This document shows, piece by piece, positions 1 to 44,996 of a stretch of 64,000 bases of DNA. Within the stretch, counting starts at the first letter, position 1. Each line of letters opens with the position of its first letter. The DNA lies in IMG/VR virus record IMGVR_UViG_3300005077_000489, positions 96,001 to 160,000 of that record. The stretch is one strand, 5' to 3'. The stretch comes from a virus (taxonomy: Duplodnaviria; Caudoviricetes). The notes under the pieces were generated by a model. It made no database searches. It saw only the letters and a list, made by a program, of their open reading frames with translations, and was not told the DNA's origin. The position numbers and the translations under genes were made by a program.

Positions 1-1
1 T

Positions 2-3000
2 GATAAATACAGATCCGATGTAGAAACCGCTGTCTCTCGTGGTCGGGGCTTTGGTAGCAGAACAGCAGCGGAGACCTACGCGAGAGTTTCTGGTATAGAT
101 ATTTCTTCATTAGATAAGAAGGCTAGGCAAGGTGTTACGCAGGGTATAACTGCTGTTGAAGATTTATTCACTAATATAAAACAAGAGTCTACAATCCTTG
201 CAGAGTCTACTGGTAGAACACTTTATGAAGCTAGAGATGAGATATCCAAAAAAATTACAGAGACTATAAATAATTTTGATATAACCAAAGCCTTGGATGA
301 TAAGACCTTGGCAGAAATGTCAAATGACTTAAGAGATAGACTTAAATCTTTAATACCAAAAGACTCTGAGAATGCTGCAAAACTAGAAGAGAATATTAAT
401 AGTTTAGTTTCTAAGTTCACAAGTTACTTCCAAAAATTCCAACGACCCATATTAGAGATTTCTAAAGATATTCCTACTGATAAACTTAAGAAGAGTATCG
501 TTGACCTATATGGAGCTATTGCCGGAAAAATAAATAGTCCAGCCATCAATGAACAAATTGAACTGGCTAAGCAAGTGTTTGAAAAGAATATGGGTCATTT
601 AAGAGGAAAATTAGGAGAAGTTAAGTTTGCTGAATACCGGGATAAGTTTGCAGAAATGATGGTTACACGATATCAAATGTGGTCCGAGAGTATCAGAACT
701 AAAATGGATGCATATATGAATTCGGCAAAAGACATGTTTACCAACATAGATGCTGCTTTGGGGGACACGTTTGGTAGGTCTTGGGATTATGTAAAAGGGA
801 TAAATATCGGACCAAAATTGCAGGCTGTATTAACTGGCTTAGTAGGTAGTGCTGCGGAATTATTTGAAGGTGCACAATCTAGTTTTGCACTACCTCTTAG
901 AGAAATAGAAAAACGGGTAAAACAATTAGACTGGAAGAGTACCTCGGATGTTATGCACGATGTTTGGTTTACACTACAAAAATCTTTAGTGTGGCTGCGT
1001 TCCGAAGCAGAAAGATATTCAGGAGAGGCTGAAAACTATAACAAAAAAGAACAGCAAGATCAGTTAAAACTAAGATTAAAACAGAGGGCAGCTTGGGAAC
1101 AAACATTAGCATTCCAGGGATTATCGAGAGAAGAGATACAAGGACCACCCGGTACAATAGCATTAAAACGACCAGAATCTTTACTAGCCGCTCCAAGTTT
1201 TGAAAGAGAAGGCATGTACAATATGGCTACAAAATATGGTCCCCTAGGGAGTTATGCCGACATCATTCAATCTTATAATGACATAGCTCGGGGTGCCTTA
1301 GCAGAAGGAAAGCCCTTTGGTACTAATTTGGGAACTGTCGTCCTAAGACCTGGATATGCACAACAGATGGGTATAGTTGGTGGCGGTACTAAATTAGGTG
1401 GAGTGGAGGTAGGACCTAAACTTCCTGTTACTTTAGGATACACTGCTGAAACAGGTGTTACCCCTATGGTTACTACACAACCTTTAGGTGGTATAGGTGG
1501 TCGTATTACACCACTGACTGAGTTACCAGAAGGTTCTATACAACTTGCTATGGGTGGCACCAGAATGATTAATTTTCGAGATACTTACGAAAAAGCAATC
1601 AGGTCTATAGCATACGGGGCTGGTATGAATGTATCTACCTACGCTGCACAAGAGAAGTTGAAGTTAGGTGCAGATTTTGAATGGGAAGTAAGGGGCTACG
1701 ATAAAGCTGTTAATTCTATGTGGAATATCTCCACTGCTCTGTTTAATATGAATAAGCAAATGGAAGAATTCAGAAAACAGGCTACTTCTGCTGGTGCTCA
1801 GACAGAGAGTGCTATGCAAAAGATAGAGGACATGAAACTAGACCAAAGGATGTTAGGTGCATTAATTAGACTAAAGGAAATGTTGGAAGAGTTCAATAAT
1901 GCCAAAGAAAAAATGACCTTTGATTTCGGTCTTGGAGAAGTAGAAGAAAACATCCGTGTGTTACAGAGGTCCCGTAGAGTAGGACTAGAAGGTATGGTAG
2001 GGTTGCCCACTAAAATGCCTACGGAATTAAGGTCTTGGTCTCAGTTGAAACCAGAGGAGCGAGCGGCTGTAGTCAGTCCGCAGTATGCCGCTTCTACACG
2101 CCGCTTAGCCGAAGCAGAGAGAAGACAAGGACTAGGTGAGAGGACGGAATTGCTCGCGGCTAAAGCAGATTATAGGGCTCGTGCATATGTGGATGAACTT
2201 AAGAAGCAGGTCAACTTAGAAAGAGAACTTGGTCCGGAAGCCTATCAAGCTTTATCAAGAGATATACTAACAGCAGATAATGAGACAGCCAGAAATACGT
2301 CGGTTAGTATAGGGCTACAAAAAGGTATGGTATCTGCACTAATCGGTATCAAAGACGCTATCACGGCAAACTTCTCCACAATGAAAGTAGAGGAAGTCTA
2401 TAAGGAAGCCATAAATTATAAGAAAACAGCGGAACAATTGGAACAGCAAGCATTAGCAATGGGTGTTCCCGAGAACTTGTCTCCGGAGATGCAAGAAAAA
2501 CAAAGGGGCTTAAATGAAAGAGCCCGCGTCTATAGGACTTTGTTTGAGGAAGGCAAAATAGAAATTTATGAGAGAACTAGAAGACCGGAAAAATCCCTTA
2601 TTACTCCTGAGTCCTTTCATAGGGTTGTATTAGGATTTCTGGCTAGTACAAAAGAGCAAGAAAGGACTATTAGGGCTAGCCTTAATGTTGGTAATAATAG
2701 AGCCGAGCAGGCACTATTTGATATTGCTACCAGACTACCACGTGAACGACGAAATGCATTCCTACAAAACAGGTATATAACAAAGAACATAGAGGCTGCT
2801 GGCAGCAATTATGTAGGTGTAGATTTTGCAGCGAATGTAGCCAAACGTCTTAAGAAATTTGATGACGAATGGTCTGAATTACAAGCCAGAAAGAAAGAGG
2901 GTAAGATATTAGAAGAGTATCTTAAACAGGCTCCACCACAGTTTCCAAACTACATGAAAGATTTCGTAGGTTTAGTGGGTATCAAATTAGGGGAAACCGT

Positions 3001-23957: not shown

Positions 23958-23971
23958 AAAGGAAATTTATT

Positions 23972-28194: not shown

Positions 28195-31100
28195 ATGTTA
28201 TCCAACTTTTTGACAAACAGTGGAAATGTAACTAGTATATCAGGTAATGATGCCTATGCACCATACCCGTATTGGGATACTTATACATATCGTCAGTTAA
28301 ATAGCACTGAGATTGATTCTTTAAAAGATAATGATTATTTGTCAGGGGGTGTGACATTTTCTCCGAATCAGTATACTTGTTTGGAGATAACCACCCCCGA
28401 ACCTATTTATATAGGTAGTATTCGTTTATATGGTCCTAGTCAACTTACTAATATGGAAGTTGGTGTGGTCATACCACAATTATCTCATACCTTATCCCAT
28501 CAAAATTTAAATTTATTAACCGATTCAGAAAGAGAAAATCTACAAGGTGAAATAGTCTACTGGGACCAAATAGATGCAAACCGTGGTTATTTCGAAACTA
28601 CACAAATCCCTCTGGTTTCTGGTTCCCCGGTAACGTTAGTGTCTGCTAATTATGATATCCTGTATTCGGCTACACTTAGCGGAGAATTAAGCGGAGTTGC
28701 AGGCAAGACAGTTAAACAAATACTAAAAGGAAATGATGTCCCCGCTGAGTTTATAAGTGTTCATATGTCAGCAGGTAGTACAGATCTAACCTTGAGTGAT
28801 GTCACTATCAGTCCTATGAATACTGAAAATTATATTCATACTTTTACTAAAGAGAATACGCTGGATGATGATGTGCGGGATAGAATAAGGTATTGGGTGG
28901 CTGATACCGAGGGCGGAGAGTACGGGCATTTTGAGGGTAGGGACATCTGGCTGGACGTCGGCTCCGGTGTTATCGGGAAATGGGACCAGTATACCACGTG
29001 GTCGGGTAACTATTCCAGAGAACAGTTAGCGGGGTACAGCTATTATACTTTTAGGCAAGTAATACCTAATAAGTATCTAGCTAGTTTTGGTGATGGAATA
29101 AGAGTTACATTTAGCGGATGTAGTGATCGAGATATCTTATTAAATGGTGTCTCCTATATGCAGGCTTCGTCGAATACGGTAACTCTGGACTTCCAAAATA
29201 ATTCTTCTTTTTTACAATATAATATAAAAGGTATAATAGATAGATGGAAGAATGATGGCTTTGATATAAACACTCCTATAGAAACGCTTCAAGGAGCAAC
29301 TACCCCAACAAATATCGGAGACTATATAGACTCTCAGAGGTCTAAACAATATGGCCATTTCGAAGGTACAGAGATAGATGTAGACGATGATACAGAAGCA
29401 ATCATGTATGATGCAAATGTGATTGGTATAATGGCTCAAAACCATGGTTTAGTACCCGGAGATTATATAAGGATATATGGTACAGAATATTATGACGGTT
29501 ACTACCAAGTCCTAACTTATTCTACAGCACATATTGTCGTCATCTGGGGAATCTATGACCCTGAAACTTTTTATTCGTCCGCGAAGATAAGGAAAGTTAT
29601 TTCTCTTGGTCCCGAAATAGATTTCTATGGAAGAAAGCAGGATTGTAGAGATGTTTTACCTTCTGTTCAAATAAATATGGCGAATGGCTCAGAGGTATAT
29701 ATTACAAACTATTCTAGTTATGGGTTGGGTCATAGTTCCGTAGAACTTAGTGATATAATAGAGACCGGCGTAGTAACCTCTATCTATGATGTGGACGTGG
29801 ATTCCAGTGGTTGGCTTACATCTATGCCTGGTCCGGATAATAATCAAGAATGGCAGACCAGTATGCCTTATGCTTATCAAAAATATTTCAAAGCTCGCAA
29901 GAAATTTACTAAGTATAGCACGGCGTGGACAGACCCTAGTAGAGGTTATACAACGCAAGCAGCCGAGGCTTACGATTACTCTGGTAAAATATCTTTAATA
30001 ACAGAGGCGGATGACCCGGAGTTTGAGGGTGATTGGACTGGTTCTTGGGACGCCCGGTTCTTTGATAGGATAATGGCCCAACCTTGGTCTATCCTTATTG
30101 CCGACGGGTGCCCATTTCAGACTTTATGTTATAGGGGTCCTATGCCTGTCAAGTTTATCTTTGATTTACAAACCCCGAAAATATTAAATAAATATAGAAT
30201 GTGGATACAACTACTTCTCTGTCCTAAATCCATGGCAGACGGAATACCTGCTCCACTAATATCTAAACCAAAGAGTTGGAAAATACAAGGTTCAAATGTA
30301 AATAATAATGATGATATTTATTGGACTACTCTTCATGAGGTAACCGATTTTAATCCGGACGATTTTATGGATACTGCGTACCCTCCGGATAAAAGGGTCC
30401 CTCTGTCTTGTGCTAATAGTGAGTGGTTATATTTTAGAAATACCGAGTTGTATCGTTACTACAGGTTGTATGTGTATGAGGTTTGGATAAAAGCCCTTGT
30501 ATATGATAAAAATCCTTATGGCGTCATATATTCTTCGGGTGTGGAGACTACTCACATAGACGAACTGGATTTGTGTGAACGCCGTGCAGCCCCGGGTATC
30601 TTTCCTACCGTGGTTACTTCGGATTTATTTGCAGATACAATAGATAGTGTATTACCGCTTGAGCATTTAAGGGATAAATCCAAGATTTTTTATTGCTTGT
30701 CCTTTGATGATGGCGATGAATTTAAGATATATAATGGAGTGGATTGGATAACGACAGTAAGGAATAATGGTGGGACATGGCAATACTTGTATAATGACAT
30801 ATTCTATAATGCAGAAGATAATAATGTGCGGAGGGCACTCTGGCAAGCCTTCTCTATACCTGAAAATAGGATGGATTATAATTCGCTTAGTAGGATAAAC
30901 ACCGGTGCTTATACTCTAGCAACTCCTTCTGGTACATATCTACAGATAGGTATTGGTTTGCTGTCCGAGGGTGTCATTGAACCTATGCTGGAAGGTATAG
31001 AGATTACTGGTATAATCTATAATCCGGTGGGGCAAAGTGAGCCCTATGAACTTACTTTCAGCGGTGCCACCGGGATTAATATACCTGCCGGGGAAAAAGT

Positions 31101-34100
31101 AACCTCCGATTGGATTAATGCTGATGTCCTACCAACAAATGATATACTGATTGTTATGGATACCGATTCTTCTGCTAGTGGTATTTCACGTTTTACAGTA
31201 GACAGGAATCCAAAGTATTTTGAACGGCGAGATGCCGCTTCTTATGATTTACAAAATGTTTCTTCTTCATTGTACACGATGAAAGAGGGCGTAGTTTTAA
31301 TAGACTCTATAGAAGTAAGACAATCTTCTACTGTAATTATTCCTGCTGCGACCAACGATCTGTTAGAGAATTCTATGGTAAGTTTGTCCGGAACTGAATA
31401 TTATAATGGACTACACACTGCGGTAAATGTTGCTGCCGACACATTTGAAATAGTTTCGAAACATAATCCTGAGACAATTATTTCCGGGGCTGTAGTCCAT
31501 GAGAGACTGTCCATCGGTGCTAATCAACTCCAACCAGAGGTGCAGGTTGGTTCCTTAGTAGAGTTCTCTGAACCAGGAGGTTATTGGTCCACTGATTACC
31601 AGTCCACACAAATAAGTGGTTATTATACTGTAACAGAAAGTAATTGTGTGGTGGGGTATGAAGCCACACATTTATTTGACCCTAGTATAACTACCTGGTT
31701 TCATAGCGGGCAGACTATCGAGGATGGTCCTATACACATTGGACTGAACACCGTTGATTTTACGAGGCAGTATAATAAAATAAGATTACGCTCAGCATAT
31801 AATGAAGACTACTGGTTAAGAGAATTTCCTAGAGGAATAAGAATAAGTGCTTGTTCCTCTAGTTCTACTCCCACTTTGACTTCTGAGGTCGAGTGGACTT
31901 TATTAGTGTCAGGAACATGCTCATTACCTATTGGTGCCGGTAGGTTCAATGAATGGATACCTTTCACTAATTCTGGTGATTATAACTGGTATAGACTTTC
32001 TTTTGACTCTAATTATGGTTCGTGGTATGATTGCGTTAGACTATCTGAGATTGAAATAGCAGATGATATTGACATTCTAAAAGGCTGCGGGTTGATCGGA
32101 GAGATACCGGGTTTCGATGCTAAATATCTCTTGGACTCGCAAAGTTATACACAATATGTTAGTTCTGGTACCATTGGTCTAGGAGCACTACATATAGGAT
32201 TAGATGCTAGAAATAGACCTAAGAAATTGAATCGATTCCAAGTAAAGTCTATCAGTAGTGCTATCACTGATACTAGTGATGACCCTTGGTTAAGGGTTAG
32301 TCCCAAAGATATCTTAGTTTATGGTTCCAATATAGCTAAGCCTACTTTGAATACGGATACTGGTTGGACCTTAATAACTACTACCGGTATAGCACTACCA
32401 CAAGCGGGGGCTGTTTATAGTAGTTGGGTAGGCGTGGTAGCTTCCGACAACTATACTACACCTACAATTAAATCTCCCACTATGACGGGGTATACTACTC
32501 CTGCTCCCTATAGTGCTTCTGCTACTTCTATTAGGGGAACATTTCACGAGCCCTGGCGGGCCTTCGATAGGGATATATCCGACAGTTCTTATGGCTGGGC
32601 ATCAAGTTCAATTTTGACTTTACCACAATCATTATCCATTTATTTAGGCAGCCCTATTATTATAAATGCTATTAGGTTACGTCCTTATAGTGGTGTAATG
32701 TATTCTAGTTTTCCTGAGACTATAAAAATGTACGGTAGTAATATATTGAGTCCCTCTATAACAAACGAGGCACATTGGTCAGAAATTACTGACTATATTT
32801 CTATTCCCGATCCTGGCGGCTTCGCGTGGACAACCTGGGTTTATTTTGATAACCCTGATGAATATTCTAGTTATAAGATTACTGTCTTTGAAACAATTAC
32901 AGGGACTCCCGATTGTGGTTTCAATGAGATATATTTAGGTTATAGGGAAAAGTTATTTCCGAATCCGGCTGATATTCCTTATCGTCATTATAAATTAAAA
33001 ATAACATCCTCCCATGGTGGTACTTCTTCTAACGTCGAGTTTTCTGATTTAAATCTTGACTATGACGAGAGCAGTTATTATCAACAAACAGTAAATTACA
33101 ATATTGACTTTCCAGTAAAGATTTTTGATTTACCCCCAAAACATGAGGTGACCGGAGTAAATATAACAACTATTAGCGGTTACAAAGGAGGTTATTCTGA
33201 GCAGGTAGGTTCTACGGTTAGTGGTACTTATCCAATTAGTTTTATAACTATCGTTGATAGGCATAATAAACTAGAGAATGATAAGTCTATAAGTCAAATA
33301 GGAGTCTCCAGTGACATAGGTGGACGTATCTATTTCAGAATATTCGAAGAATATACGGAGGGCTCCACCGAGAGATTTACTATATGGGATGTATTTAGTG
33401 TTACTCATAGTGGAGGCGGTTTTCAGTGGTTTACTTTGACAGACCCTTATATAATTCCTAGTGAGGGAAATCATTACTTAGGGTGGTATCAGGCTAATAA
33501 CCCTAGAAAAATGGGTGTAACGGGCGGTGAAGGTAAAACCTCTTATCAGTATGGAGATTATATTGGAACTAATATTTATCTACCGTTGCACCATACCGAT
33601 TTCCTACCTTCTTTAGCCGTAAGGTATAACAGTTATTTTGATTTAGGAATAACTACCAATAGCGGTCTATTATTAAATAATTTCAGTCCTGCTCGTAACA
33701 GCAAGATATTTAATAGTTCAAATACGCTGGGACCTTATTATGACGAGACTGTTTCTATATACTTAGGTCGTCCTAGTCCAGTCGTGGAACCTAATACTCA
33801 AGGGTCTATGCTGGTAACTATTTATTACAAAGAAGAGGGTGAGGATAACTATGGGTTATCACAATTGGTAACAATAAAAGATAGTTCTCATAAAATGTAT
33901 GACCACCCTATAAACAATGCTTTTGATTCCGATAGTAAAAACTATTTTAGTCCAGAGAAATGGTTGGATGAATACCAAAATCTCAGGTTTATGCTGCGTT
34001 TTTATGACCCCGTATATTTGGAAGCTTTCTCTGTTGCACCGGCACAGGTGTCAAACGGAATAGATTGCTTACCAGACTCCTTGATGATTGCTGGTTCCGA

Positions 34101-37100
34101 AGACTATGCTAGGTTGTATGATGCAGAGGATTGGACTGATTTATATTTTGATGAGGATTACTCAATTCCTACAATAAGTGATTGGAAACCGTACATATAT
34201 TTTGATGACCACACAACGCAATACCGTTATTATAATTTTACATTGTGGCATTATGGTTATCCACAAAAGTATGGTATGTTGGGTGGGGTAAGGGTTGTTG
34301 GCGTTCTTCCATACCCAACTTATGTTACCACATCTGGTTTGCTAACGACGGTACGAAGTATAACAGGCGACGGAAGGGATGCTAATGAAGTAAGATTATT
34401 ACATAAGAGCGGAGATAGAAGGTATATTAATAATATTTGGAATACTTATACATACAACGGACGTAATGAAGTTTCTCCTGGAACTGTGTTTTTGATGGGA
34501 GAAAATAACATGTCTACTACGTGCCCGCATCCCGTCTCAGTAATCAAAGAATATAATGGTAATCGTAATGAATTACCTGTATCCCCAGTAGAATTTGGTG
34601 GATTAAATATTCTTGCTTGGCATAAGTTTGAAGAGGAGACCGGTAATTTTATAGATTACTCTGGTAATAATATTAATGTGGTGCGAGTAGGGAATATAAT
34701 TATAGAAGATGGTAAGCGGGGGAAGGCGGCTAAAATAGTAGATTCTGATAGTCCTCCAAAATATGGTGTGTTTACATTACCACATCATTTGACTGAATAT
34801 AGTGTTTCCTTTTGGTTCAGACCAGTTCATGACATATATCCTGGATATCCAATAACTTTTGATATAATGGGTGGTTGGGTTTCTTATGGTAATGTACCGG
34901 GTGTGTGGCATATATCATTAGGTCGAACTTATTTATATGTGGATTCTCCTTATCCCTTTAGACAAGAGAATACTTTACCACTAGGTTCTTCGCATTCTAC
35001 CAAGATCTTTTTTGGTAATTATGGGAAGGTTATCTATACAGGGAGGGAAGTGTGGAGTAAGAAGTCCTGGCATAATATCATATTTTCATTCGATTCCGAT
35101 GGGGACTATAAAGTATGGGAGGACGGAACATTAGATTATGAGTCTGGAACTCTATCCTCGACCATCTACCCACCGCCACCTGAGATAATTGTAAATCCGG
35201 CTGATATACATTATGATAACTATGACTTTAATAATTGTATGTATTATGGTTTACCTTGGATAGACGGTCAAGGTGCCGTGGGAGAGTTTTATTTGGACCA
35301 CGTAATGCATTTTAATAAAGTTTTTACAGATGAAGAAGCCTTTACAATATATAGATTAAAAGATAATTCGGAAGAGTGGGATGGAATATATTTTAATAGT
35401 CCACAGAACATAGAGTTACCTAGTAAATTAATATTTGATTTTGGACAAGATATCTCTGTTAATAAATATAGTTTTATTTTATCTAACACCCAAACATGGG
35501 CAGTCCCAAAGACCGAGTGGTTGTTAACTGCGTCTGGAGAGGATACTTGGGAGGTTTTGGATAATAATTACATTGAACTCGGAGAAATGCAATATATAGA
35601 GGGGGAATATATAGAAGAAACGAGGGAATTAACCATAAGTTCAGAAACCCTACCTCTTGCTATCTATTCTATTTATCCGGGCGAGCAGGTTATAGAGGTG
35701 TCGTTTGAGACTACAGAATATTTCAGTGGGGGTCACGACGGCACTTACGGTGGTATATATAATGACCCAGTACCAAATCCATTTTATGCTGCATACCCCG
35801 CAAATAGGACGTCCTTAATTGCAGGATATAATGTCTCTCAGGAGATGGTCAGGAATAATGAGTGGATTTCCTTGATACAAATAGTAAATTCGGTCAGCGG
35901 TTATATAAAATTTAAATTATGGAAATCCTCTCCTAACTCGTCTACGCATGTGATTGAGGATATCACCGATTTACTTCCTCTATCTGCCGGATCAAATAGT
36001 TATAATGTTCACTATAAGACTGGAATACCTTATCTAGGGGTTTCACCCACATTTTTTCCTGCTTTTTATGCTACTTGTGAAATAGACAGGCCGTATGGTG
36101 GGAGTGATCAGGACCAATATAATTATAAGTCCGGAGATATAACCGGCACTAGCACTGGCTGGACCAATATGGGTGGTTATTATACTTGCAGACTCCTTGT
36201 CTATTATCATGCTCCCAAATATAATTTAGGATTGGGTGCATCATCTAACTATTTTTATACAGCAGTTTCTTTTAATAATTTGTATGAGAGTCCTTTGACC
36301 CATTCTTATCCTTTACCTGTTAAAGATGTGATTCAGAATATCTATATTTATAGTAATAATGTTGTACAAGTAGATACGGAGGGCGTGTTAAGACTCACAA
36401 TTAAGAAAAAGATTCCTCCTCATAATCTTTTTACTGATTATGTGCACAATATTACTAATACTAAAGCATATCGACATTATGCTATAGAACTGGTAGGGAC
36501 CAATGATTGCAGAGAGAATTTAGAATTATCCGGTTTGAGAATGTTTGATACCCCTAGAGTTCCGACTGTCTCAGGTAATAGTCTTTCTGTTACCTCGGGT
36601 ATAGCTGCTAATAATATACTAGAATGCATTTCTGATAGTAATCCGGGTGATGCTGCTATAAGTTATGCTGTTTCCCTAGACAATATAGATTGGTGTATCA
36701 TGACGGCGAGCGGGTGGGAACCTGTCATATTAGATAAGGATGCTGTCTTGACACCTTCCGGTCTCTTCTTTAGTATAAATAATTGTGATTGGTTATCATT
36801 AGGTTCGGGAACGTTGTCTATTGCTCACAAGTTTGTAACTAATTCTAATTATTGTTATCCTGGAATAAATTCCTATAATGTGTTAGCCACAGACTACACT
36901 GCTTCAGGGACTGGCTCCTATATAACCTATAGTGGCAATATAACATATACAGTTCCGATGACTACTACTATTTCTAGTGATTGGTTGCATTATGCGTGGC
37001 AGAACTACGGAGATTATCATATTTTAAGCTATTTGGTTGATAGTGGTTACTTACCTATAGGTAGTGGTCAAGGTTATTTTGTAGATACATCTTATACGTG

Positions 37101-40100
37101 TAGCGGTTCTAGCCTAACACCATACATAATATCCAGGACTGATGATGTTATAAAAATAACTGCTTCTACTGTTGATGGTTTGAATATTGGTAACAAAATT
37201 AATATTGATACAGTATCTGGTTATACTATATATGAAGTAGAAGACATAATTGGAAATAATATAGTTCTTAATGCTCCTAAATTGTATGACGTTTTACCTA
37301 CTGATAGTTATTATAGACGCATAGTAACGCCTTACTATGAACTACGCGGGGAACAAGTTAATGTAAGTGGTACCGAAGTCAGGATTTCTGAGATGAATGA
37401 GGACTTAATAACTTTGAGTGGTAGTTTTAACTCAGGTGATATAGTAAATATTTCTTCCTCTAAAATTACTGGTAGTGGTATATTACCTACTACTATAAGT
37501 GGTAGATATTTTAATTTAGCAGACGGTGGTTACTACTTTTCTCCTGTTATGACATCTTTCTCGACCCCCGGTTCTTATACTATAGCTACTAATAAAATTA
37601 TAGCAGCGACGGAAGATTATACTATTAATGCGACTGATACATTTCCTAAGAAGATTTTTACTCTACCTAAAGATACAGTTTTGTTTGATACTATAATAAC
37701 AGTAAAGGATAGTTTTAGTGGCGATACTCCAGATACTTTTGGATATATAAGTAGCAATAAAACAGATAGTTATTACAACCGTTCTTATATAAATGATGGA
37801 ACTACGTTGACGAACGGGCGTTTAATAAGTCATTTTTGCTTATGGCAAGGAACGTCTAGTTATTATAGAGATGCTTATATGGGATTAAATATAAAAATTA
37901 AGTTGGTAAAACAAACTGGTGGCAGTAATCAGTATTATGATATACTAGACACAATTTGGGAAGGAGTAAACCCCGTATATGGTGATTTTTATGTTTATCT
38001 AGACCCACCTTTTAGAATTCCTTCCACCGGCATCCACCGTCTCTGCTACTGTTTAGGTGCTGCAAATTCTTTTTATGCCTTCGGGGTCTTGACTACTTCG
38101 AGAAATGACGGGTTACGCTACAAAGACGATGCTGATCCTACGGGTAACAATGTTTCATTTCTCTATCATAGCGGTGGTAATATGAGTTATAATTTAGTTA
38201 CTTACTATACCAGTTCCTACTCTGTTGGCACTCTGTCAAATGCTACCTATTTCACTGATACATTTAAATGGAACAGTCCACCCACGATTACCGGTTCAAT
38301 CGGTCCCTTTGCTACGGAGACAGATGTATATATGCACCGACAAGTTACTGTAGGACATACTGCAGGGGCATTTAATGTCTCCTTCGAGCACTCCGATTAT
38401 ATGTATCATTTATTTGATGGTAAACTGGACCCGGTTCCTACAGTAACTTCGGGTACCGCTTTATCTATAGATATGGGTTCAACATCTAATGTTGATGGGT
38501 ATAGATGGTACTATAGTACAGACGGAGAAGTAAATAGTCCCCTTATTTGGTCTATGTACGGTTCTAATGAGTTGCCTTATTGGTCCCATATAGCGGATGA
38601 AACTTCAGTCGTCGTAAATAGGGTATGGTCGTCTGTATTTAGTTTAACCCCCGGTTATAAGTATTATGGAATTAGATTTTACGATGATTATGAATTAGCC
38701 GAGATAGAATTTGTATACAGGAATAATACAACTACGTCTGGAATACATTTACTATCTACCACCAGCGGATGGGGATTTAGTTATGTGGGAAAATTATCGT
38801 ATATTGAAGCAAATACTTATGAACCGGGCGGTACAAGCATATACCATGCGATAAGTTTTGATAACTCAAATACATTTAAAATTTATAAGAATGGTAATTG
38901 GGTGGATATCGTTAGATATTTGGGGCAGTGGCAGTATAATGGAGGCGGGTGGTTTAATGCTCCTGATAATACTAAGTATTCCGCTTTTAGGGGAGCCTTG
39001 GATTATGGTCATACTTTTTCTAGTATCGAACTGGGGGGCATATTAGATGATGACTGGTACACGACTGGCGGGTTAACTTCTACTTCTGGTAGAATAAACT
39101 TTATTAATGCTATGCTGAGTGATGGCTACATAGTTCCATCAATTTCCTACTATGATATCTATTATACTGCACGGTCAGGGAATGTAACAAGTCAATGGTG
39201 GGCTAATTCTCTTATACCTTCTGGTTATGCCTATACAGTGGTATCTGGTTCTCCATATTTCTTTACAAACCACTATGATGTACCTTTGTATACAGATGAA
39301 ACTTTTGATGAATATCGTTACGACAGAGAGTATACTAATAATTTCAGATTATATACTGTAAATAGGTCTGCGGCTACGAGTGTTCCTTTGTACGAAATAA
39401 TGGTAACGGATGTCCAAACCCCAGATGATGCATATAGATTAGAATTATTTTCTCATGTCGCAGAGGATTGTGTTGTTGTCTGCTCAGGTATAACAGTGGA
39501 TACCGCCAAATTAACGGATAAAATACTACGGACTGGTGGGATACAAATTACTGAAAATAAATTGGTAGACTTAGAACTTTCTTCTATTCCCCGCAGCCGT
39601 GGTTTATTCTACGGCGATTTACGTCTGTATTTTGACACTGCTTTGGATAGACCTAGTTTAATAAGTGCGGCACCTTCCAGTAATACTTTGAATGGGAATA
39701 TTTCTACTAATACTTTTCTTCCTGTCTCCGTCTCCGGTATAGTCTTTAACTCAAACTACAATTTATCGGATGACCATTATTCCGTCTATTTTTGGGCTGA
39801 TTCTCCTGTCACTAAATTGGCTGTACGTACCGCTAATAAGAATAGTGTTGGTACAGGATTAGAAAGGATTACGGAACTAGGCGTCTTTCCTATAGAGTAT
39901 GAGGGTGGGTGGAATGTGCCCAGCGGTTTTAATTTATTAGAGACTGCCGAGTCTAAAAGTTATGTACATACAGCATTTTCTGCTTATAGGTACCAGTATT
40001 TATCTACACCGCATTTGGAGAGACTCTTTGATACTTCGATTTCTGGAGCCCTGCCAATCTTTGGTGGTTATTACATCGGGGTGGAGTCCTCATTAAATTA

Positions 40101-42420
40101 CTTTACAGGGAAGGCTAGGGAGTTACGTTTTGTTGTGGAAGACAACTCTGATATGACTATAGCTTTTTATACACAGACTTCAGGGGAACCGTCTTGGACG
40201 GAACGTACTCCTACTTGGAGTGGTTCTGGGTATTTTTATTACACGTTTGATATGCCTACTAATATAACCGCTACCCGGGTGGCTTGTTTAAATACTGCTA
40301 CAGGTGTTCGATTTGAAGATATAAAATGGTGTAGGTCTATACAATTAGTAAATGCTGGAGACGAGATAGACTTTGGTACAACTGGCGGCGAACCCGGTGT
40401 CGTAGACTTGCCTTTGTATTATGGATTACCAGAAATTGTAGAAATATTCAATAATAGTAGTCACGGGAATTATGCTAATGCTCGCGTTTTGCCCAGATTC
40501 TCTAATAACTATAACTTGGACAGAAATACCCAATTATCTGAAGATATGGTAAATTGGTATGGGTTAAATTCCGGTCTTTGTTTACCGGAGGATCTACCAT
40601 TCGAAACAGGAACTTTTGTTGGAACAGAAATATCCACTGAAGGAACTATAAAGTTAATAGATAGTGCTGTCTCAGGCACATGGACTTCCAGAGTCATAGA
40701 GGTATTAGATCCATCAAGTACAGTTGCTTATGTATATACAGAGAATAGTAGTTATGATGGAAGTTATGTTAATAAAGATTACAAAACAGTAATGAATATA
40801 ATAGAAGTTCGGGCTGCAGATGCCAATATTTCTCATCCTTTGTTCGTTACTGGTGCCGGGACGGAACCACAAGACGGGGATCAGCTACCATGGAAAGCAG
40901 TAGCTTTTGATACCAGCGGAAACCTATTATCTTGGGACGGCGGCAATCTAAACCGGGGTAGTCTCACCTATATAATAGGCGGACCACACAGGACTTATTC
41001 TTATTATTCAAGGCAGCCCTTGTGGCAGTTTTATGGGGCTATGAACTCTATGGGTTATGGGGCTTACACTGCTGGTAATGAGAAGGAAAGTATAGCTTTT
41101 GGACCCTACTTATTCTATAAACTTAGAACTATTTATCCTTATGATTATTCTCCGCCAAGTTATGCTATTCCTAATGAAAATAGTTTACATATTTATGGGA
41201 ACACTTACGAATATATGATACCTGTCTTTAATAAATCTTTGAGATATACTACTAAATATACTGATGGAGTAACTAAACCAACATGGCAATGCTTAGACGT
41301 GGTCCACAGAGAACTTCCCTTTTATGAGCGTTACCAAGAATATTATTTTGATGAAGGGGGTTTTCAACTAAGAAGTTTATTCACATTTAATGGTGATACA
41401 GATACTCCTGAGAGCACCACTGAAATAGACTATATTTGTTCTTTACCGGGGACGGTCGAAGGATTATTAGCGGATAGTATAAGATGTGCAGCATGCATAG
41501 ACGGGCAGGTTGGGGATTACTATAGTTGGTTTCATTATGCCTATACCGCAGAGGGGGAGGAAGAGTATAAAACTTTATTACTTAATGGTAGTGAAATAGT
41601 TCGGGAATGGACTAACATAGAAAGGAGTTTTAACTATATGGTAGAGGCTCCTCCAGAGAGTCCTCGCGGGTTTTGGGGGATAGGAGAAACAGCAGTCTAT
41701 TGGTATGAATATGATGGTACTAATTTAACGGAAGTTTTCTCAGTTAATACAGACGGTAATAAAACATTCAAACTACTAACTTTCGGGTATAATGATTATA
41801 ATAATAATTTATGGGTAGTAGACCTAGCAACAGAACGAGTTATTCGTATAAATTTTGAGCAGCATAGTGTAGATTATAGTAGAATAGTGGATGGAGCGTG
41901 TAGTGTTTATCCAGACGCCTTTGATGGCTCGGCTTATGTTTATGTTTTAAGAGACCCTGAATTTCCATCTAATGATTGTATAAAGTTAGTACATGCTACA
42001 GACTACGATTACCTAGTTCCGGAAGTGGTTTGTGCTGTACCAGGAATCGCTTTAATAGACCCTTACAATGTGAATCTATACGGACGCGGTCATTACCCGG
42101 AAGGTTATTACAACATCATGCCACAAGATGTTGTATGGAAGGAAGTAGCGGGTGCAGAGTGGAAACGTTATAGTTCCGGCAGCCCAACATTACCTAAAGG
42201 ACAGTATAAACAATTCCGGATAACCTTACAAAGGAATGATTTAGATTCAGTTTCACCGGAAGTGCAATATATAAGAATACCGGTTCCAGCAGTAATAAAT
42301 AAGATACCTTATCAAGGGTATAAGAAGATATATGTTGATACTTTACTGCGTAATGAAAATACCGCTTTAAATGCCGGAGATTATTCAGCAGACTTATTAG
42401 TATGGTGGCCGAGGGATTAA
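28195..42420 (+). CDS. Giant multidomain tail fibre/adhesin-like protein (4,741 aa)
   Basis: Multiple discoidin/F5-8C-like modules (PKSWKIQGSN...YRYYRL; WRAFD...MYGSN), a LamG/ConA module (LAWHKFEE...YSVSFWFRP...WHNI), FCCH-like modules (HGLVPGDYIRIYGTEYYDG) and a C-terminal beta-propeller (NNLWVVD). No signal peptide. Confidence 0.8.
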   Translation: MLSNFLTNSGNVTSISGNDAYAPYPYWDTYTYRQLNSTEIDSLKDNDYLSGGVTFSPNQYTCLEITTPEPIYIGSIRLYGPSQLTNMEVGVVIPQLSHTLSHQNLNLLTDSERENLQGEIVYWDQIDANRGYFETTQIPLVSGSPVTLVSANYDILYSATLSGELSGVAGKTVKQILKGNDVPAEFISVHMSAGSTDLTLSDVTISPMNTENYIHTFTKENTLDDDVRDRIRYWVADTEGGEYGHFEGRDIWLDVGSGVIGKWDQYTTWSGNYSREQLAGYSYYTFRQVIPNKYLASFGDGIRVTFSGCSDRDILLNGVSYMQASSNTVTLDFQNNSSFLQYNIKGIIDRWKNDGFDINTPIETLQGATTPTNIGDYIDSQRSKQYGHFEGTEIDVDDDTEAIMYDANVIGIMAQNHGLVPGDYIRIYGTEYYDGYYQVLTYSTAHIVVIWGIYDPETFYSSAKIRKVISLGPEIDFYGRKQDCRDVLPSVQINMANGSEVYITNYSSYGLGHSSVELSDIIETGVVTSIYDVDVDSSGWLTSMPGPDNNQEWQTSMPYAYQKYFKARKKFTKYSTAWTDPSRGYTTQAAEAYDYSGKISLITEADDPEFEGDWTGSWDARFFDRIMAQPWSILIADGCPFQTLCYRGPMPVKFIFDLQTPKILNKYRMWIQLLLCPKSMADGIPAPLISKPKSWKIQGSNVNNNDDIYWTTLHEVTDFNPDDFMDTAYPPDKRVPLSCANSEWLYFRNTELYRYYRLYVYEVWIKALVYDKNPYGVIYSSGVETTHIDELDLCERRAAPGIFPTVVTSDLFADTIDSVLPLEHLRDKSKIFYCLSFDDGDEFKIYNGVDWITTVRNNGGTWQYLYNDIFYNAEDNNVRRALWQAFSIPENRMDYNSLSRINTGAYTLATPSGTYLQIGIGLLSEGVIEPMLEGIEITGIIYNPVGQSEPYELTFSGATGINIPAGEKVTSDWINADVLPTNDILIVMDTDSSASGISRFTVDRNPKYFERRDAASYDLQNVSSSLYTMKEGVVLIDSIEVRQSSTVIIPAATNDLLENSMVSLSGTEYYNGLHTAVNVAADTFEIVSKHNPETIISGAVVHERLSIGANQLQPEVQVGSLVEFSEPGGYWSTDYQSTQISGYYTVTESNCVVGYEATHLFDPSITTWFHSGQTIEDGPIHIGLNTVDFTRQYNKIRLRSAYNEDYWLREFPRGIRISACSSSSTPTLTSEVEWTLLVSGTCSLPIGAGRFNEWIPFTNSGDYNWYRLSFDSNYGSWYDCVRLSEIEIADDIDILKGCGLIGEIPGFDAKYLLDSQSYTQYVSSGTIGLGALHIGLDARNRPKKLNRFQVKSISSAITDTSDDPWLRVSPKDILVYGSNIAKPTLNTDTGWTLITTTGIALPQAGAVYSSWVGVVASDNYTTPTIKSPTMTGYTTPAPYSASATSIRGTFHEPWRAFDRDISDSSYGWASSSILTLPQSLSIYLGSPIIINAIRLRPYSGVMYSSFPETIKMYGSNILSPSITNEAHWSEITDYISIPDPGGFAWTTWVYFDNPDEYSSYKITVFETITGTPDCGFNEIYLGYREKLFPNPADIPYRHYKLKITSSHGGTSSNVEFSDLNLDYDESSYYQQTVNYNIDFPVKIFDLPPKHEVTGVNITTISGYKGGYSEQVGSTVSGTYPISFITIVDRHNKLENDKSISQIGVSSDIGGRIYFRIFEEYTEGSTERFTIWDVFSVTHSGGGFQWFTLTDPYIIPSEGNHYLGWYQANNPRKMGVTGGEGKTSYQYGDYIGTNIYLPLHHTDFLPSLAVRYNSYFDLGITTNSGLLLNNFSPARNSKIFNSSNTLGPYYDETVSIYLGRPSPVVEPNTQGSMLVTIYYKEEGEDNYGLSQLVTIKDSSHKMYDHPINNAFDSDSKNYFSPEKWLDEYQNLRFMLRFYDPVYLEAFSVAPAQVSNGIDCLPDSLMIAGSEDYARLYDAEDWTDLYFDEDYSIPTISDWKPYIYFDDHTTQYRYYNFTLWHYGYPQKYGMLGGVRVVGVLPYPTYVTTSGLLTTVRSITGDGRDANEVRLLHKSGDRRYINNIWNTYTYNGRNEVSPGTVFLMGENNMSTTCPHPVSVIKEYNGNRNELPVSPVEFGGLNILAWHKFEEETGNFIDYSGNNINVVRVGNIIIEDGKRGKAAKIVDSDSPPKYGVFTLPHHLTEYSVSFWFRPVHDIYPGYPITFDIMGGWVSYGNVPGVWHISLGRTYLYVDSPYPFRQENTLPLGSSHSTKIFFGNYGKVIYTGREVWSKKSWHNIIFSFDSDGDYKVWEDGTLDYESGTLSSTIYPPPPEIIVNPADIHYDNYDFNNCMYYGLPWIDGQGAVGEFYLDHVMHFNKVFTDEEAFTIYRLKDNSEEWDGIYFNSPQNIELPSKLIFDFGQDISVNKYSFILSNTQTWAVPKTEWLLTASGEDTWEVLDNNYIELGEMQYIEGEYIEETRELTISSETLPLAIYSIYPGEQVIEVSFETTEYFSGGHDGTYGGIYNDPVPNPFYAAYPANRTSLIAGYNVSQEMVRNNEWISLIQIVNSVSGYIKFKLWKSSPNSSTHVIEDITDLLPLSAGSNSYNVHYKTGIPYLGVSPTFFPAFYATCEIDRPYGGSDQDQYNYKSGDITGTSTGWTNMGGYYTCRLLVYYHAPKYNLGLGASSNYFYTAVSFNNLYESPLTHSYPLPVKDVIQNIYIYSNNVVQVDTEGVLRLTIKKKIPPHNLFTDYVHNITNTKAYRHYAIELVGTNDCRENLELSGLRMFDTPRVPTVSGNSLSVTSGIAANNILECISDSNPGDAAISYAVSLDNIDWCIMTASGWEPVILDKDAVLTPSGLFFSINNCDWLSLGSGTLSIAHKFVTNSNYCYPGINSYNVLATDYTASGTGSYITYSGNITYTVPMTTTISSDWLHYAWQNYGDYHILSYLVDSGYLPIGSGQGYFVDTSYTCSGSSLTPYIISRTDDVIKITASTVDGLNIGNKINIDTVSGYTIYEVEDIIGNNIVLNAPKLYDVLPTDSYYRRIVTPYYELRGEQVNVSGTEVRISEMNEDLITLSGSFNSGDIVNISSSKITGSGILPTTISGRYFNLADGGYYFSPVMTSFSTPGSYTIATNKIIAATEDYTINATDTFPKKIFTLPKDTVLFDTIITVKDSFSGDTPDTFGYISSNKTDSYYNRSYINDGTTLTNGRLISHFCLWQGTSSYYRDAYMGLNIKIKLVKQTGGSNQYYDILDTIWEGVNPVYGDFYVYLDPPFRIPSTGIHRLCYCLGAANSFYAFGVLTTSRNDGLRYKDDADPTGNNVSFLYHSGGNMSYNLVTYYTSSYSVGTLSNATYFTDTFKWNSPPTITGSIGPFATETDVYMHRQVTVGHTAGAFNVSFEHSDYMYHLFDGKLDPVPTVTSGTALSIDMGSTSNVDGYRWYYSTDGEVNSPLIWSMYGSNELPYWSHIADETSVVVNRVWSSVFSLTPGYKYYGIRFYDDYELAEIEFVYRNNTTTSGIHLLSTTSGWGFSYVGKLSYIEANTYEPGGTSIYHAISFDNSNTFKIYKNGNWVDIVRYLGQWQYNGGGWFNAPDNTKYSAFRGALDYGHTFSSIELGGILDDDWYTTGGLTSTSGRINFINAMLSDGYIVPSISYYDIYYTARSGNVTSQWWANSLIPSGYAYTVVSGSPYFFTNHYDVPLYTDETFDEYRYDREYTNNFRLYTVNRSAATSVPLYEIMVTDVQTPDDAYRLELFSHVAEDCVVVCSGITVDTAKLTDKILRTGGIQITENKLVDLELSSIPRSRGLFYGDLRLYFDTALDRPSLISAAPSSNTLNGNISTNTFLPVSVSGIVFNSNYNLSDDHYSVYFWADSPVTKLAVRTANKNSVGTGLERITELGVFPIEYEGGWNVPSGFNLLETAESKSYVHTAFSAYRYQYLSTPHLERLFDTSISGALPIFGGYYIGVESSLNYFTGKARELRFVVEDNSDMTIAFYTQTSGEPSWTERTPTWSGSGYFYYTFDMPTNITATRVACLNTATGVRFEDIKWCRSIQLVNAGDEIDFGTTGGEPGVVDLPLYYGLPEIVEIFNNSSHGNYANARVLPRFSNNYNLDRNTQLSEDMVNWYGLNSGLCLPEDLPFETGTFVGTEISTEGTIKLIDSAVSGTWTSRVIEVLDPSSTVAYVYTENSSYDGSYVNKDYKTVMNIIEVRAADANISHPLFVTGAGTEPQDGDQLPWKAVAFDTSGNLLSWDGGNLNRGSLTYIIGGPHRTYSYYSRQPLWQFYGAMNSMGYGAYTAGNEKESIAFGPYLFYKLRTIYPYDYSPPSYAIPNENSLHIYGNTYEYMIPVFNKSLRYTTKYTDGVTKPTWQCLDVVHRELPFYERYQEYYFDEGGFQLRSLFTFNGDTDTPESTTEIDYICSLPGTVEGLLADSIRCAACIDGQVGDYYSWFHYAYTAEGEEEYKTLLLNGSEIVREWTNIERSFNYMVEAPPESPRGFWGIGETAVYWYEYDGTNLTEVFSVNTDGNKTFKLLTFGYNDYNNNLWVVDLATERVIRINFEQHSVDYSRIVDGACSVYPDAFDGSAYVYVLRDPEFPSNDCIKLVHATDYDYLVPEVVCAVPGIALIDPYNVNLYGRGHYPEGYYNIMPQDVVWKEVAGAEWKRYSSGSPTLPKGQYKQFRITLQRNDLDSVSPEVQYIRIPVPAVINKIPYQGYKKIYVDTLLRNENTALNAGDYSADLLVWWPRD

Positions 42421-44996
42421 TGTCTATAAATTTAATTAAGCGTGCAGATGTTAGAAACATTTCCAATTATACTGGTTTACCGCAAACAACGGCGACCAGG
42501 AGTGAATTAAAACAATTAGTCGGCGTTGAGGATGGTAGCGGGCTAGTAGTTCCTTCTTTACACTACTTTGGCATGGAGGCTTTACTAAACAAGCCTTTCT
42601 TTTGTAAAGATTGTAGTGTGACTGTTTCCAATGGGGATGATGACTACGCAGAGTTATATTGTAGTATACTCAGGCAGTCTACAGAGTACTGGGAGAGTTT
42701 AGCCGTTACTAAAACCGACTTCGGTTTTTATATTGATTTCAACGATGTCCTACCGGACTATGCTAAGTTGATATATAAAATACAATTTACCTATTTGAAC
42801 CTATCGGTATCTCCGTCTACTCTGCAGATTATAGAACTACTCAGTGTTGATTATCCTATTAATTTTGATTTCAATGAATTTTCTGTAGTTGCTAGTAGTC
42901 ATGAAAATAGTCCGTTAAAGATTTATAATAACTCTGTACAAGGAACGGAGAGAGATGTACGCGTATTTCCTATATATAGTGGAGATTTTGCATTAGACCA
43001 GGTTTTTATGTTGACAGAAAGTGGAAAAGAGGATACTGACAAATATCATATAAACCGTGGTATATCTATTCCTGATAGTATACCATGGAGCAGCGGGTAT
43101 TTTGAGAATACCACAACTAGCGGGAGGTTTCTTACTTTGTCAGGAACCTCTACCTCTGGTAGTTGGACATCACCAGTTATTTTTACGAATAATGAAGATT
43201 ATATTACCATGTATCTATACTCAAACAACACAAATGAGAATGCTGTTGTTGAAAGAGACTGGACATCGGTTAATGAATTAATTGAGGCCCGCGGGTCTAA
43301 TGAAACACCCCTTCCTCACTTCCTAATCTTGTCTTGGAATAAAGAGTTATTCTCTATGATTGATGGCTATGGAAATTTAATGGCGGATAGTTTACCAACG
43401 CCTGATAGAAGACCAGTAGATATGTCTGCTGCAAGCCCTCCGGACCCCAGTGATCCCTATTGGTTAGTCGATGATTTTTTTGGGCCATGCGGGAATAAAG
43501 TTTCTTTTGTAAGCCCGTGCCCCTATATATTTGGGAAGTCTAAACGTATATTTATGAAGGGAGACGGAACCGTTATTCATCAGAGTGAAGACGGCTTCTA
43601 CGAAATGGCTTCCCGTGTTTATTGGGTAGGAATTCCTTACAAAATTTATGGTGATATAAATGATTACTGGACTGCTGGTTTGTATAACAATTTATTGGGG
43701 GCTGGCGATTACGGAGGTTGTACCCTTAGTTTAGCACAAGCAGGTATGCACGATAGGATGACTATAGGGAAAGAAGGTAGTCTTACAGCAGATTGGTTAT
43801 ATGGTAGGAGTATAAAGGATTACGGTATATCAAATATTTATCCGAATAAAGGATACTGCTTAAAACAAAACATAGGGGTTGCACAAGAACTCAAACCATA
43901 TGAATACTTTGGTGCGACAACTCTGGCGATGAAGAGGCATCCAAATGAATGGGCTGTAGTAAGTTCAGACATATATCCTATCGATGGTGGAGACAGATTT
44001 ATAAATGTTTATTTACTTAATATACGTAATTGGTGGGTATCCGAAAGACAGTACCTAGGCTCCTTCTCTATGGGAGGGGATGCCTGTGATGAGGGTTATG
44101 CTGTTTGTAAAAGTGAATTTGCTGATGATAATGAAGGTGGTTTTTGGTTGCACGTAGGTTATTCAAATAATATTATAAGGAAATATTCCATGGATGGTCG
44201 TTTGCTGGCTGATTATGAAGTTAAGAGAGGGTATAGTTATTTGATTGAATCTAAAGTAGAGGGAGAATTGTGGGCGGTAAGAAATACAGGTATTTATTAC
44301 TATAAAGAAGTTGGAGATGAGTTGGAGGTACAATTCAAAATAGAAGATGATCGCTTTGACTATTTACACCTAGGTGGTATAGATGATGATAACAATTTGT
44401 GGGTGGTGGACCGGGATACTTCTACTATTTATCGTATAAATTTTTCTAGTAGAGAAATAGATTATTCTAATTATGTACCTTATGTTATAGGGGTGTGGCC
44501 ACATCCATCAGATGGTTCTGCTTACTTGTATGTCAGTTTTTATCCAGATACCTTTACTACTGCAATTAAACGTGTTTGGGTTAATGATCCCTATCAATAT
44601 GAGGAATTAATAACTCCTGTTAATTCCATGCCTTTATCAGATTCAACCGGCGTCCAATTCAAAGGGAAAGTTTCCGGTAATTATATATCTGTGGGGTCAA
44701 ATGACCCAATATGGGGTAATAATGGTGACCTAACCCTGGAGTGGCAGTCTTACGCGAATGCTAGTCTGACTTTACCGACGGGTAAGTATAAACAATTTAG
44801 AATAACTTTACGAAGAAGTTCCTCTGGTGTTACTACTCCTAATATACAAAAGATTAGGATTCCGTTACCGCTCATTCTGGAGCAGGTTCCTTTCGAGGAT
44901 TATAAAAATGTTTATATTAATCCGCATCTCCGCTATGACAGGCAACGCGGACACTATACTACAGAATTAGTTTCATGGTGGCATCACGATGTATAA
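42420..44996 (+). CDS. Beta-propeller-containing appendage protein, paralog of the C-terminal ~830 aa of the 4,741-aa protein
   Basis: ATG 42420 overlaps the upstream stop (TAATG). Shares WTSPVI, IEARGS, NNLWVVD, PHPSDGSAYLY, GKYKQFRITLRR and LVSWW motifs. Confidence 0.75.
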   Translation: MSINLIKRADVRNISNYTGLPQTTATRSELKQLVGVEDGSGLVVPSLHYFGMEALLNKPFFCKDCSVTVSNGDDDYAELYCSILRQSTEYWESLAVTKTDFGFYIDFNDVLPDYAKLIYKIQFTYLNLSVSPSTLQIIELLSVDYPINFDFNEFSVVASSHENSPLKIYNNSVQGTERDVRVFPIYSGDFALDQVFMLTESGKEDTDKYHINRGISIPDSIPWSSGYFENTTTSGRFLTLSGTSTSGSWTSPVIFTNNEDYITMYLYSNNTNENAVVERDWTSVNELIEARGSNETPLPHFLILSWNKELFSMIDGYGNLMADSLPTPDRRPVDMSAASPPDPSDPYWLVDDFFGPCGNKVSFVSPCPYIFGKSKRIFMKGDGTVIHQSEDGFYEMASRVYWVGIPYKIYGDINDYWTAGLYNNLLGAGDYGGCTLSLAQAGMHDRMTIGKEGSLTADWLYGRSIKDYGISNIYPNKGYCLKQNIGVAQELKPYEYFGATTLAMKRHPNEWAVVSSDIYPIDGGDRFINVYLLNIRNWWVSERQYLGSFSMGGDACDEGYAVCKSEFADDNEGGFWLHVGYSNNIIRKYSMDGRLLADYEVKRGYSYLIESKVEGELWAVRNTGIYYYKEVGDELEVQFKIEDDRFDYLHLGGIDDDNNLWVVDRDTSTIYRINFSSREIDYSNYVPYVIGVWPHPSDGSAYLYVSFYPDTFTTAIKRVWVNDPYQYEELITPVNSMPLSDSTGVQFKGKVSGNYISVGSNDPIWGNNGDLTLEWQSYANASLTLPTGKYKQFRITLRRSSSGVTTPNIQKIRIPLPLILEQVPFEDYKNVYINPHLRYDRQRGHYTTELVSWWHHDV

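Follow-up and report, generated by a model that had tools for sequence, protein, structure and literature searches.

Nested lectin-type modules in a giant phage protein, probably of the tail tip

How is a phage polypeptide of several thousand residues put together, and what would it serve? This question is raised by a window of 64,000 nucleotides (nt), namely, positions 96,001 to 160,000 of the IMG/VR record IMGVR_UViG_3300005077_000489 (Caudoviricetes), whose source genome is a single contig of 211,229 bp. An open reading frame (ORF) on the plus strand, at 28195-42420, encodes a protein of 4,741 amino acids (aa), hereafter P0001, in a reading frame that is unbroken in the window. A first reading of the letters, the original prediction, had proposed that this protein is built by recursive insertion of domains within domains. 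The nesting proves to be real and reaches three levels, from a discoidin through a small outer sandwich to a DUF4082-like module, although one of the examples put forward for it was a misreading of tandem repeats. P0001 is probably a giant virion protein of the tail tip or baseplate, in which nested lectin-type modules would form a branched glycan-binding appendage; its location in the virion, the binding of glycans and a role in host recognition are what we infer.

A word-index search and an exhaustive HMMER search on 1.84 billion representatives returned 12 giant relatives from uncultured phages (P0002-P0013; 2,684 to 5,242 aa) and few other proteins. These relatives align to P0001 along most of its length with 30-55% identity, and for this reason the ORF is, as judged by comparison, a real gene despite its thin database signal. 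P0002 and P0009 are probably truncated, the N-terminus of the former having been lost at the end of its contig.

The first host domain, discoidin (a), had been predicted to contain a whole second discoidin just before its last strand, and this was borne out. In the multiple alignment, P0002, P0004 and P0010 display a loop of 5-6 aa linking a '...DWV[SD]V' strand to 'YRHY[RK][LF]KITS...', where P0001 has about 170 additional residues. A hidden Markov model (HMM) built from these three uninterrupted relatives matches P0001 in two complementary halves on either side of the insert, and in one piece in the preceding domain, which serves as an internal reference (Table 1). The insert begins at nt 32455, the very position given for the inner discoidin in the original prediction, and has its own discoidin-like HMM match at aa 1505-1571. 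Since self-BLAST of the whole protein returned the identity match only, internal repeats were taken from chunked self-BLAST, which relates aa 1152-1263 to aa 1304-1420 (E 5e-13) and aa 1370-1432 to aa 1507-1570. In P0003, P0005, P0006, P0007 and P0008, the same loop is filled by another insert of about 175 residues, identified as a DUF4082-like module by the inner-module HMM described below. Among orthologs, loop (a) is therefore found empty, with a discoidin, or with a DUF4082-like module. In P0012 (1274-1672) and P0013 (1321-1719), host (a) is also broken after HMM position ~58, by about 220-250 aa including inner-module and outer-sandwich matches; this second break indicates that the host has at least two insertion-tolerant loops.

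The second host, discoidin (b), had been described as interrupted by a LamG domain and again by a jelly-roll unit before its 'YRHYAIEL' strand. With regard to the jelly-roll unit, here named J2, the interruption was confirmed. Seven relatives (P0002, P0006, P0009, P0010, P0011, P0012 and P0013) have a loop of 10-25 aa in place of P0001 aa ~2462-2748, and an HMM built from them matches the middle part and the last strands of the host as complementary halves. Presence or absence of the inserts in relatives, the comparison proposed at the outset, was thus examined for both hosts; insert (a) and J2 are cleanly missing in several of them. As relatives without the inserts have the halves joined, the separated halves belong to one domain, and P0001 carries binding-type modules inserted in a host domain, alongside relatives devoid of the insert.

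These comparisons bear directly on a simpler view, in which P0001 is a string of beads with debris, the halves being leftovers of partial duplication or deletion that fold independently or form disordered linkers, without any nesting. The inner discoidin of (a) and J2 are both poorly modelled, with low AlphaFold2 confidence, and a first-strand-like motif occurs before and after another jelly-roll unit, J3, as expected of duplication junctions. Nevertheless, relatives including the sister protein P0002 have the halves joined, with a loop of 5-25 aa at the exact break. Further, the orphan strands are conserved, matching the corresponding HMM end with independent E-values (i-E) of 3e-12 and 5e-11, and their predicted local distance difference test (pLDDT) values are 71-92. 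We consider the debris view very improbable, and retain domain insertion.

The identity of the modules was approached at the level of fold, with AlphaFold2 models of aa 1296-2105 (mean pLDDT 75) and aa 2095-2800 (mean pLDDT 59), and at the level of transitive homology. The model of aa 1296-2105 matches the eight-stranded galactose-binding-domain-like beta-sandwich, with VIA-align Z scores of 12-14 to carbohydrate-binding module (CBM) families CBM32 and CBM62, the galactose oxidase N-domain and discoidin I (127-135 residues aligned, root-mean-square deviation (rmsd) 2.3-2.9). Discoidin/CBM32-type matches were likewise obtained with the model of aa 2095-2800 (Z 10-11, 116-135 aligned), most of them beginning at model residues 12-15 and ending at 691-696. 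The gathering score of the PF00754 model is not reached by any part of P0001, whether submitted whole or as 13 fragments. The link is a transitive one only: P0001:1415-1564 is similar to P0005:109-247 (BLAST E 3.6e-6), and a P0005 stretch overlapping the latter scores 49.6 bits with PF00754, for a cut-off of 28.2 (E 5e-13). Homologs carry Pfam-significant PF00754, PF22633 and PF13313. The P0001 modules are like F5/8 type C/CBM32, LamG/ConA-like and DUF4082 domains in fold (Z 12-16), but these copies are too divergent for the Pfam models. Domains of the F5/8 type C/CBM32 class bind their sugar or ligand with loops that lie across the sandwich from its two termini.

Three jelly-roll hosts, each carrying the same inner module of about 130 aa, had also been proposed. 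The three units, J1, J2 and J3, are indeed homologous over their full length, as indicated by pairwise hhalign probabilities of 98.6%, 99.6% and 97.0% over 232-253 columns; the reading as split hosts is well supported but not comparatively proven, and the nesting of J3 is ambiguous. J1 is the best-modelled part of the aa 1296-2105 model. Its inner module resembles the Cwp84 lectin-like domain (model 373..519; VIA-align Z 12.0, 135 aligned) and a capsid chain of cyanophage A4 (model 372..517; 142 aligned). A 140-aa jelly-roll chain of the Pam1 capsid aligns 109 residues over model 331..586 (Z 11.4), which is the number of flank residues (model 332-372 and 520-586) and supports an outer sandwich around the inner module. 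The HMM of the inner module matches it alone in about 28 other proteins, in tandem, as stand-alone proteins of 140-158 aa, at the end of a collagen and phage-tail-repeat protein, and in discoidin loops of P0001 relatives. One of its HMM-level relatives, P0015, reaches 31.9 bits with DUF4082 (PF13313; cut-off 28.4), whereas P0020 and P0030 stay below the cut-off and P0001 itself has no Pfam match. By contrast, an HMM of the spliced outer sandwich always matches as two pieces flanking an inner match, including in the unrelated 936-aa protein P0016. J2 would thus be a split sandwich holding a lectin module and itself lying within a split discoidin, which makes three levels of nesting.

In the case of J3, a motif resembling the first discoidin strand stands on both sides of the unit, at window 37546-37605 ('...MTSFSTPGSYTIATNKI') and 38368-38400 ('...TAGAFNVSFEHSD'), and P0012 and P0013 align to either of them. 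The pair may be the footprint of a cassette insertion, or it may provide an alternative first strand; J3 itself may be an ordinary cassette between domains.

The LamG fold postulated within discoidin (b) was recovered. A two-sheet jelly roll of about 200 residues, at model residues ~38-297, aligns 190-206 residues (rmsd 3.1-3.5) with the lectin-like sub-domains of clostridial neurotoxin binding domains and with AbnA domain 4 (Z 15-16.5, the best match having 200 residues aligned at rmsd 3.3), and resembles pentraxins and CBM40 at fold level (Z 11-12); Pfam gives no match for it. That this domain lies inside the discoidin is supported indirectly. Discoidin (b) probably begins before it, with the 'NNMSTTCPHP' segment as its putative first strand; without the strands at model residues 21-33, the domain would have seven strands, as opposed to eight in the other copies, and the CBM32-type matches starting at model residues 12-15 point the same way. 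When P0002:1692-1731 and P0002:1984-2098 were folded together in a two-chain complementation test, the support was weak, with a score of 0.45 against 0.01 for the best control, at least 78% of the contacts agreeing between runs and a partner pLDDT of at least 56. Solved complexes attained the mark in 58 of 80 cases and mismatched pairs in 2 of 110, and scores of at most 0.60 at that mark were seen for only 7 of those 80 complexes and for both passing mismatches.

Several results weigh against the nested architecture, in addition to the low model confidence already mentioned for the inner discoidin and J2. Pfam searches on whole P0001 and the 13 fragments gave nothing significant, only weak DUF5000 and DUF5643 matches, and phmmer against all PDB sequences found no match to P0001; with Pfam silent, the domain names depend on folds and transitive homology. 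The re-formation of the split domains is deduced from relatives, conserved orphan strands and confidence values. The range ends given by the structural aligner are loose, since discoidin matches on the aa 1296-2105 model are given as 1..744 although several discoidins lie inside, and this weakens the range-based support both for the outer sandwich and for a first strand ahead of LamG. No uninterrupted outer sandwich was found among the ORFs of the genome and 41 fetched proteins, and none of P0002-P0013 is without the LamG-like domain, so comparative proof is missing for both the outer and the LamG nesting. The firm proof of nesting is comparative, and the models contribute fold identity and the confidence of orphan strands.

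The same results would suit a reading with only two levels, in which the LamG-like domain sits between domains and the 'outer sandwich' of the J units consists of terminal extensions of one larger lectin domain. It is consistent with the loose range ends, the missing uninterrupted outer sandwich and LamG-less relative, the weak outcome of the complementation fold and a further null result, as hhalign detected no relation of aa 2100-2140 to the discoidin N-terminus. It fits poorly with an inner module that is autonomous in many proteins and flanks that never occur without it, with the agreement between the aligned part of the Pam1 chain and the flank count, and with the confident strands before LamG that are needed to complete eight. 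We regard the two-level reading as rather unlikely, and three levels of nesting as the better description.

Structural-alignment ranges were also considered as proof of discontinuity and rejected as decisive, because the 1..744 matches span two or three discoidins. Nearly all discoidin-type matches on this model (window 32080-34509) span residues 1-2 to 741-748 with ~130 aligned, which reflects either loose alignment ends or the first residues touching the last discoidin of the stretch. The fold search rows of the ESM Atlas for the same model end in the disordered tail (residue 809), with TM by query of 0.16-0.23, and their ranges are unusable. From the structural alignments there is a hint of more entanglement in aa 1296-2040 than a linear reading would give, and the nesting may for this reason be deeper than described here.

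One of the proposed examples did not survive. The 'RQVIP...IRVTFSG' domain had been thought to resume at ~31050 of the window, and its two 'TFSG' motifs to be halves of one domain. This was rejected, since aa 223-340 is the second of two tandem copies and is complete, an HMM of aa 225-340 also matching aa 115-218, while hhalign detected no relation between aa 223-340 and aa 940-1043. An HMM of aa 945-1043 matches a repeat in an unrelated protein of 1,092 aa encoded elsewhere on the contig (G000:C1:45904-49182, beyond the window), whose repeats are related to P0001 aa 945-1043 and aa 154-216 (i-E 1.5e-8 and 3e-5). In other respects, a small barrel-like domain occurs twice, at aa 407-475 and 1044-1116 (window 29413-29619 and 31324-31542; hhalign 97%), as does a domain of ~110 aa, at aa 800-945 and 3534-3646 (window 30592-31029 and 38794-39132; i-E 1e-11).

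Table 1. Features of P0001 (window coordinates; residue numbers refer to P0001)
Feature	Window position	Residues (aa)	Strand	Remarks
Two tandem domains of ~110 aa	28522..29214	110-222 and 223-340	+	hhalign 98.4%, 110 columns
Uninterrupted discoidin-like domain 1, internal reference	31624..32064	~1144-1290	+	Host (a) HMM 3-151 in one piece
Host discoidin (a), N-terminal part	32083..32454	1297-1420	+	HMM 2-126, i-E 2e-37; AlphaFold2 pLDDT 78-95
Inserted discoidin-like domain, 171 aa	32455..32967	1421-1591	+	Missing in P0002, P0004, P0010; BLAST match to P0005:109-247
Host discoidin (a), last strands 'YRHYKLKIT...'	32968..33072	1592-1626	+	HMM 122-156, i-E 3e-12; pLDDT 74-92
Unit J1	33073..33849	Outer 1627-1667 and 1815-1885; inner 1668-1814 (nt 33196-33636)	+	AlphaFold2 pLDDT ~90
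Uninterrupted discoidin-like domain	33871..34314	~1893-2040	+	Strands pLDDT 73-90; CBM32, CBM62, galactose-oxidase folds, Z 12-14
Putative first strand(s) of host discoidin (b)	34510..34584	~2106-2130	+	Predicted; pLDDT 79-91, strands at model 21-33
LamG/ConA-like lectin jelly roll	34588..35367	~2132-2391	+	VIA-align Z 15-16.5, fold level only
Host discoidin (b), middle	35368..35577	2392-2461	+	HMM 2-70, i-E 4e-18
Unit J2, inserted in host (b)	35617..36420	~2475-2742; inner ~2515-2674	+	Missing in seven relatives; homologous to J1 and J3
Host discoidin (b), last strands 'YRHYAIEL...'	36439..36573	2749-2793	+	HMM 73-115, i-E 5e-11; pLDDT 71-87
Unit J3, then discoidin-like domain	37606..38727	~3138-3400, then 3403-3511	+	Variable cassettes
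Conserved C-terminal core	39772..42417	3860-4741	+	Best-conserved part, common to the next two genes

An occupancy map of the 13 proteins reveals three clean variable blocks, at aa ~1415-1595, ~2453-2740 and ~3090-3510, and additional inserts elsewhere in relatives. The whole block of J3 and the following discoidin is missing in P0002, P0004, P0006, P0009, P0010 and P0011, and P0012 and P0013 are without J3 only, the discoidin being kept. The tree built on the C-terminal core groups P0001 with P0002 as its sister (100/99), the latter without all three variable blocks; P0004 and P0010 are likewise sisters (100/99) and differ in J2. As sisters differ by whole blocks, one must suppose either that precise gain and loss took place repeatedly or that the middle region recombined. 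Yet the core tree may not track the history of a recombining middle region, a further point to be counted against our interpretation. Relative to P0001, both P0003 and P0005 have one more cassette of F5/8 type C, Pfam-significant and following aa ~107, and more inserts at aa ~3838-3932; as their contigs measure 647 and 658 kb, the family reaches genomes of megaphage size.

The conserved C-terminal core links P0001 to its neighbours. Its HMM matches the ORFs of 864 aa (i-E 2e-28 and 7e-57) and 1,167 aa (6e-22 and 6e-50), which are also related to each other according to BLASTP. The three core-sharing genes are consecutive (window 39772-42417, 42402-44996 and 44989-48492) and share ~860-880 aa; the 864-aa ORF amounts to the core alone, the 1,167-aa ORF to the core with an N-terminal addition, and P0001 has 3,860 aa before it. 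All three end in a '...YKQFRI[TS]L...IRIP...WW' tail. The P0001 gene stands within a block of ORFs that are all on the plus strand and include genes of structural type. Upstream lies the final portion of a tape-measure ORF that stays open from base 2 through 19753, and the ORFs on the 3' side encode 864, 1,167, 181, 458, 513, 661, 385 and 1,892 aa. On the contig of P0002, the closest relative, the downstream genes follow in the same order (863, 1,150, 181, 450, 512 and 658 aa). A blastn search with 7.8 kb found no match in the phage nucleotide collection.

Two HNH-type ORFs were also noticed in the window, at 23951-24907 and at 50596-51822. The second, of 408 aa, separates the 458-aa and 513-aa genes; it is missing from the sister contig (L001:17432-20337), where the orthologous 450-aa and 512-aa genes lie 15 nt apart. 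In this it behaves like a mobile insertion among the structural genes.

With regard to function, PHROGs gave two weak matches for P0001, one of them to a 'tail protein' family, and the BFVD neighbours of its model are multi-lectin phage proteins of virion-associated, minor-tail and F5/8-type-C kinds. An ESM Atlas feature search with the C-terminal core returned unnamed viral clusters at 0.78 at best, below the useful range. No Dit or Tal fold was identified in P0001 by Pfam, PHROG and PDB-sequence searches, the models covering aa 1296-2105 and 2095-2800 only.

The architecture could be right and the function another, P0001 serving to decorate or shield the tail or baseplate, with lectin modules that adhere loosely to environmental glycans (mucus, biofilm or capsule), or even being a non-virion protein. 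Conservation lies at both termini and variation in the middle, unlike classical fibres with their variable C-terminal tips, and the structural neighbours of the J modules include cyanophage capsid-associated chains. These observations are to be set against the location of the gene, with the tape measure on one side and further tail-type genes on the other in an order that is conserved, against a cassette turnover between sister phages that fits selection on host recognition, and against collagen and tail-repeat proteins that are tipped with DUF4082-like modules. A decoration or a non-virion role would be a less plausible outcome, at perhaps one chance in a few, and we keep to an appendage of the tail tip or baseplate.

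In such an appendage, the conserved core of ~880 aa would probably build the protein into the tail or anchor it there, and the ~3,850 residues before it would form an arm displaying beta-sandwich modules of lectin type, with at least six discoidin/CBM32-like, one LamG/ConA-like and three DUF4082-like modules in our inventory. Several of these would bud from the surface loops of other modules instead of following end to end: a discoidin in a discoidin, a DUF4082-like module in a small outer sandwich, and that unit, probably together with the LamG-like domain, in a discoidin. In-frame gain or loss of a module would leave the host fold intact, which presumably reflects adjacent N- and C-termini. 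The likely result is a multivalent, branched, predicted glycan-binding appendage whose repertoire is altered by the gain, loss and exchange of cassettes. A bolder proposal can be put forward tentatively, and is perhaps doubtful: in this lineage of jumbo or mega-phages, discoidin loops of a conserved lectin scaffold might act as plug-in sockets that stay empty or take up either a discoidin or a DUF4082-like module, the latter alone or carried by an outer sandwich. With cassettes swapped or lost from one sister phage to another, host or glycan specificity would be reprogrammed by in-frame loop cassettes and not by exchange of fibre tips.

If the modules do bind glycans, P0001 shows how very large phages can pack many binding sites on one polypeptide and alter them by loop cassettes, and it would give the engineering of phage adhesins, whether multivalent or retargeted, a model taken from nature. 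A loop that is empty in some orthologs and filled by a discoidin or a DUF4082-like module in others amounts to a clean natural experiment on which CBM32-like loops tolerate the insertion of whole domains. There is also a warning for annotation, as linear domain callers miss nested proteins entirely, Pfam being blank on P0001.

The suggestion that such nesting is an undescribed route for diversifying receptor-binding appendages could not be upheld, as precedents exist. The insertion of CBMs in loops of phage Dit and Tal proteins is established (PMC9437275). RTX adhesins use split domains to project ligand-binding domains, with one three-level case in which a beta-roll holds a vWFA domain with its own insertion (PMC12077191). 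More generally, domain insertion concerns about 20% of multidomain proteins, and recursive nesting reaches up to six levels (PMC13114784).

The evolved Dit and functionalised Tal of Lactobacillus phage J-1 and Streptococcus thermophilus phages (PMC9437275, PMC7291167) are like P0001 in having CBMs in host-domain loops of a tail-tip protein, with inserts in some relatives only, and in adding adhesion sites to an unchanged scaffold. Their host is, however, a structural galectin-like or gp27-like domain with one level of insertion, whereas P0001 has hosts of lectin type, three levels and alternative inserts at one loop, is about ten times larger, and displays no sequence relationship that we could find. 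The RTX adhesins AhLap and MpIBP (PMC12077191 and Graham et al. 2024, which it cites) are likewise giant and hold ligand-binding domains sideways from split domains. These are bacterial, type I-secreted and Ca2+-dependent proteins, with immunoglobulin (Ig)-like extender or RTX domains as hosts on a long linear stalk, and their resemblance to a phage protein with lectins inside lectins is architectural only; Pfam returned no RTX or Ig families on P0001, no dedicated RTX scan having been made. The SI3 insertion of the cyanobacterial RNA polymerase beta' subunit (PMC13114784) shares the A1-B1-C-B2-A2 arrangement, the small beta domains and the use of one fold as both host and insert, but has a sandwich-barrel hybrid fold, another function and setting, and six levels against three in P0001. 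P0001 is thus an extreme and well-documented case of a principle that was already known; what is new are the lectin-in-lectin hosts, the three alternative states of one loop in orthologs and the turnover of cassettes between sisters.

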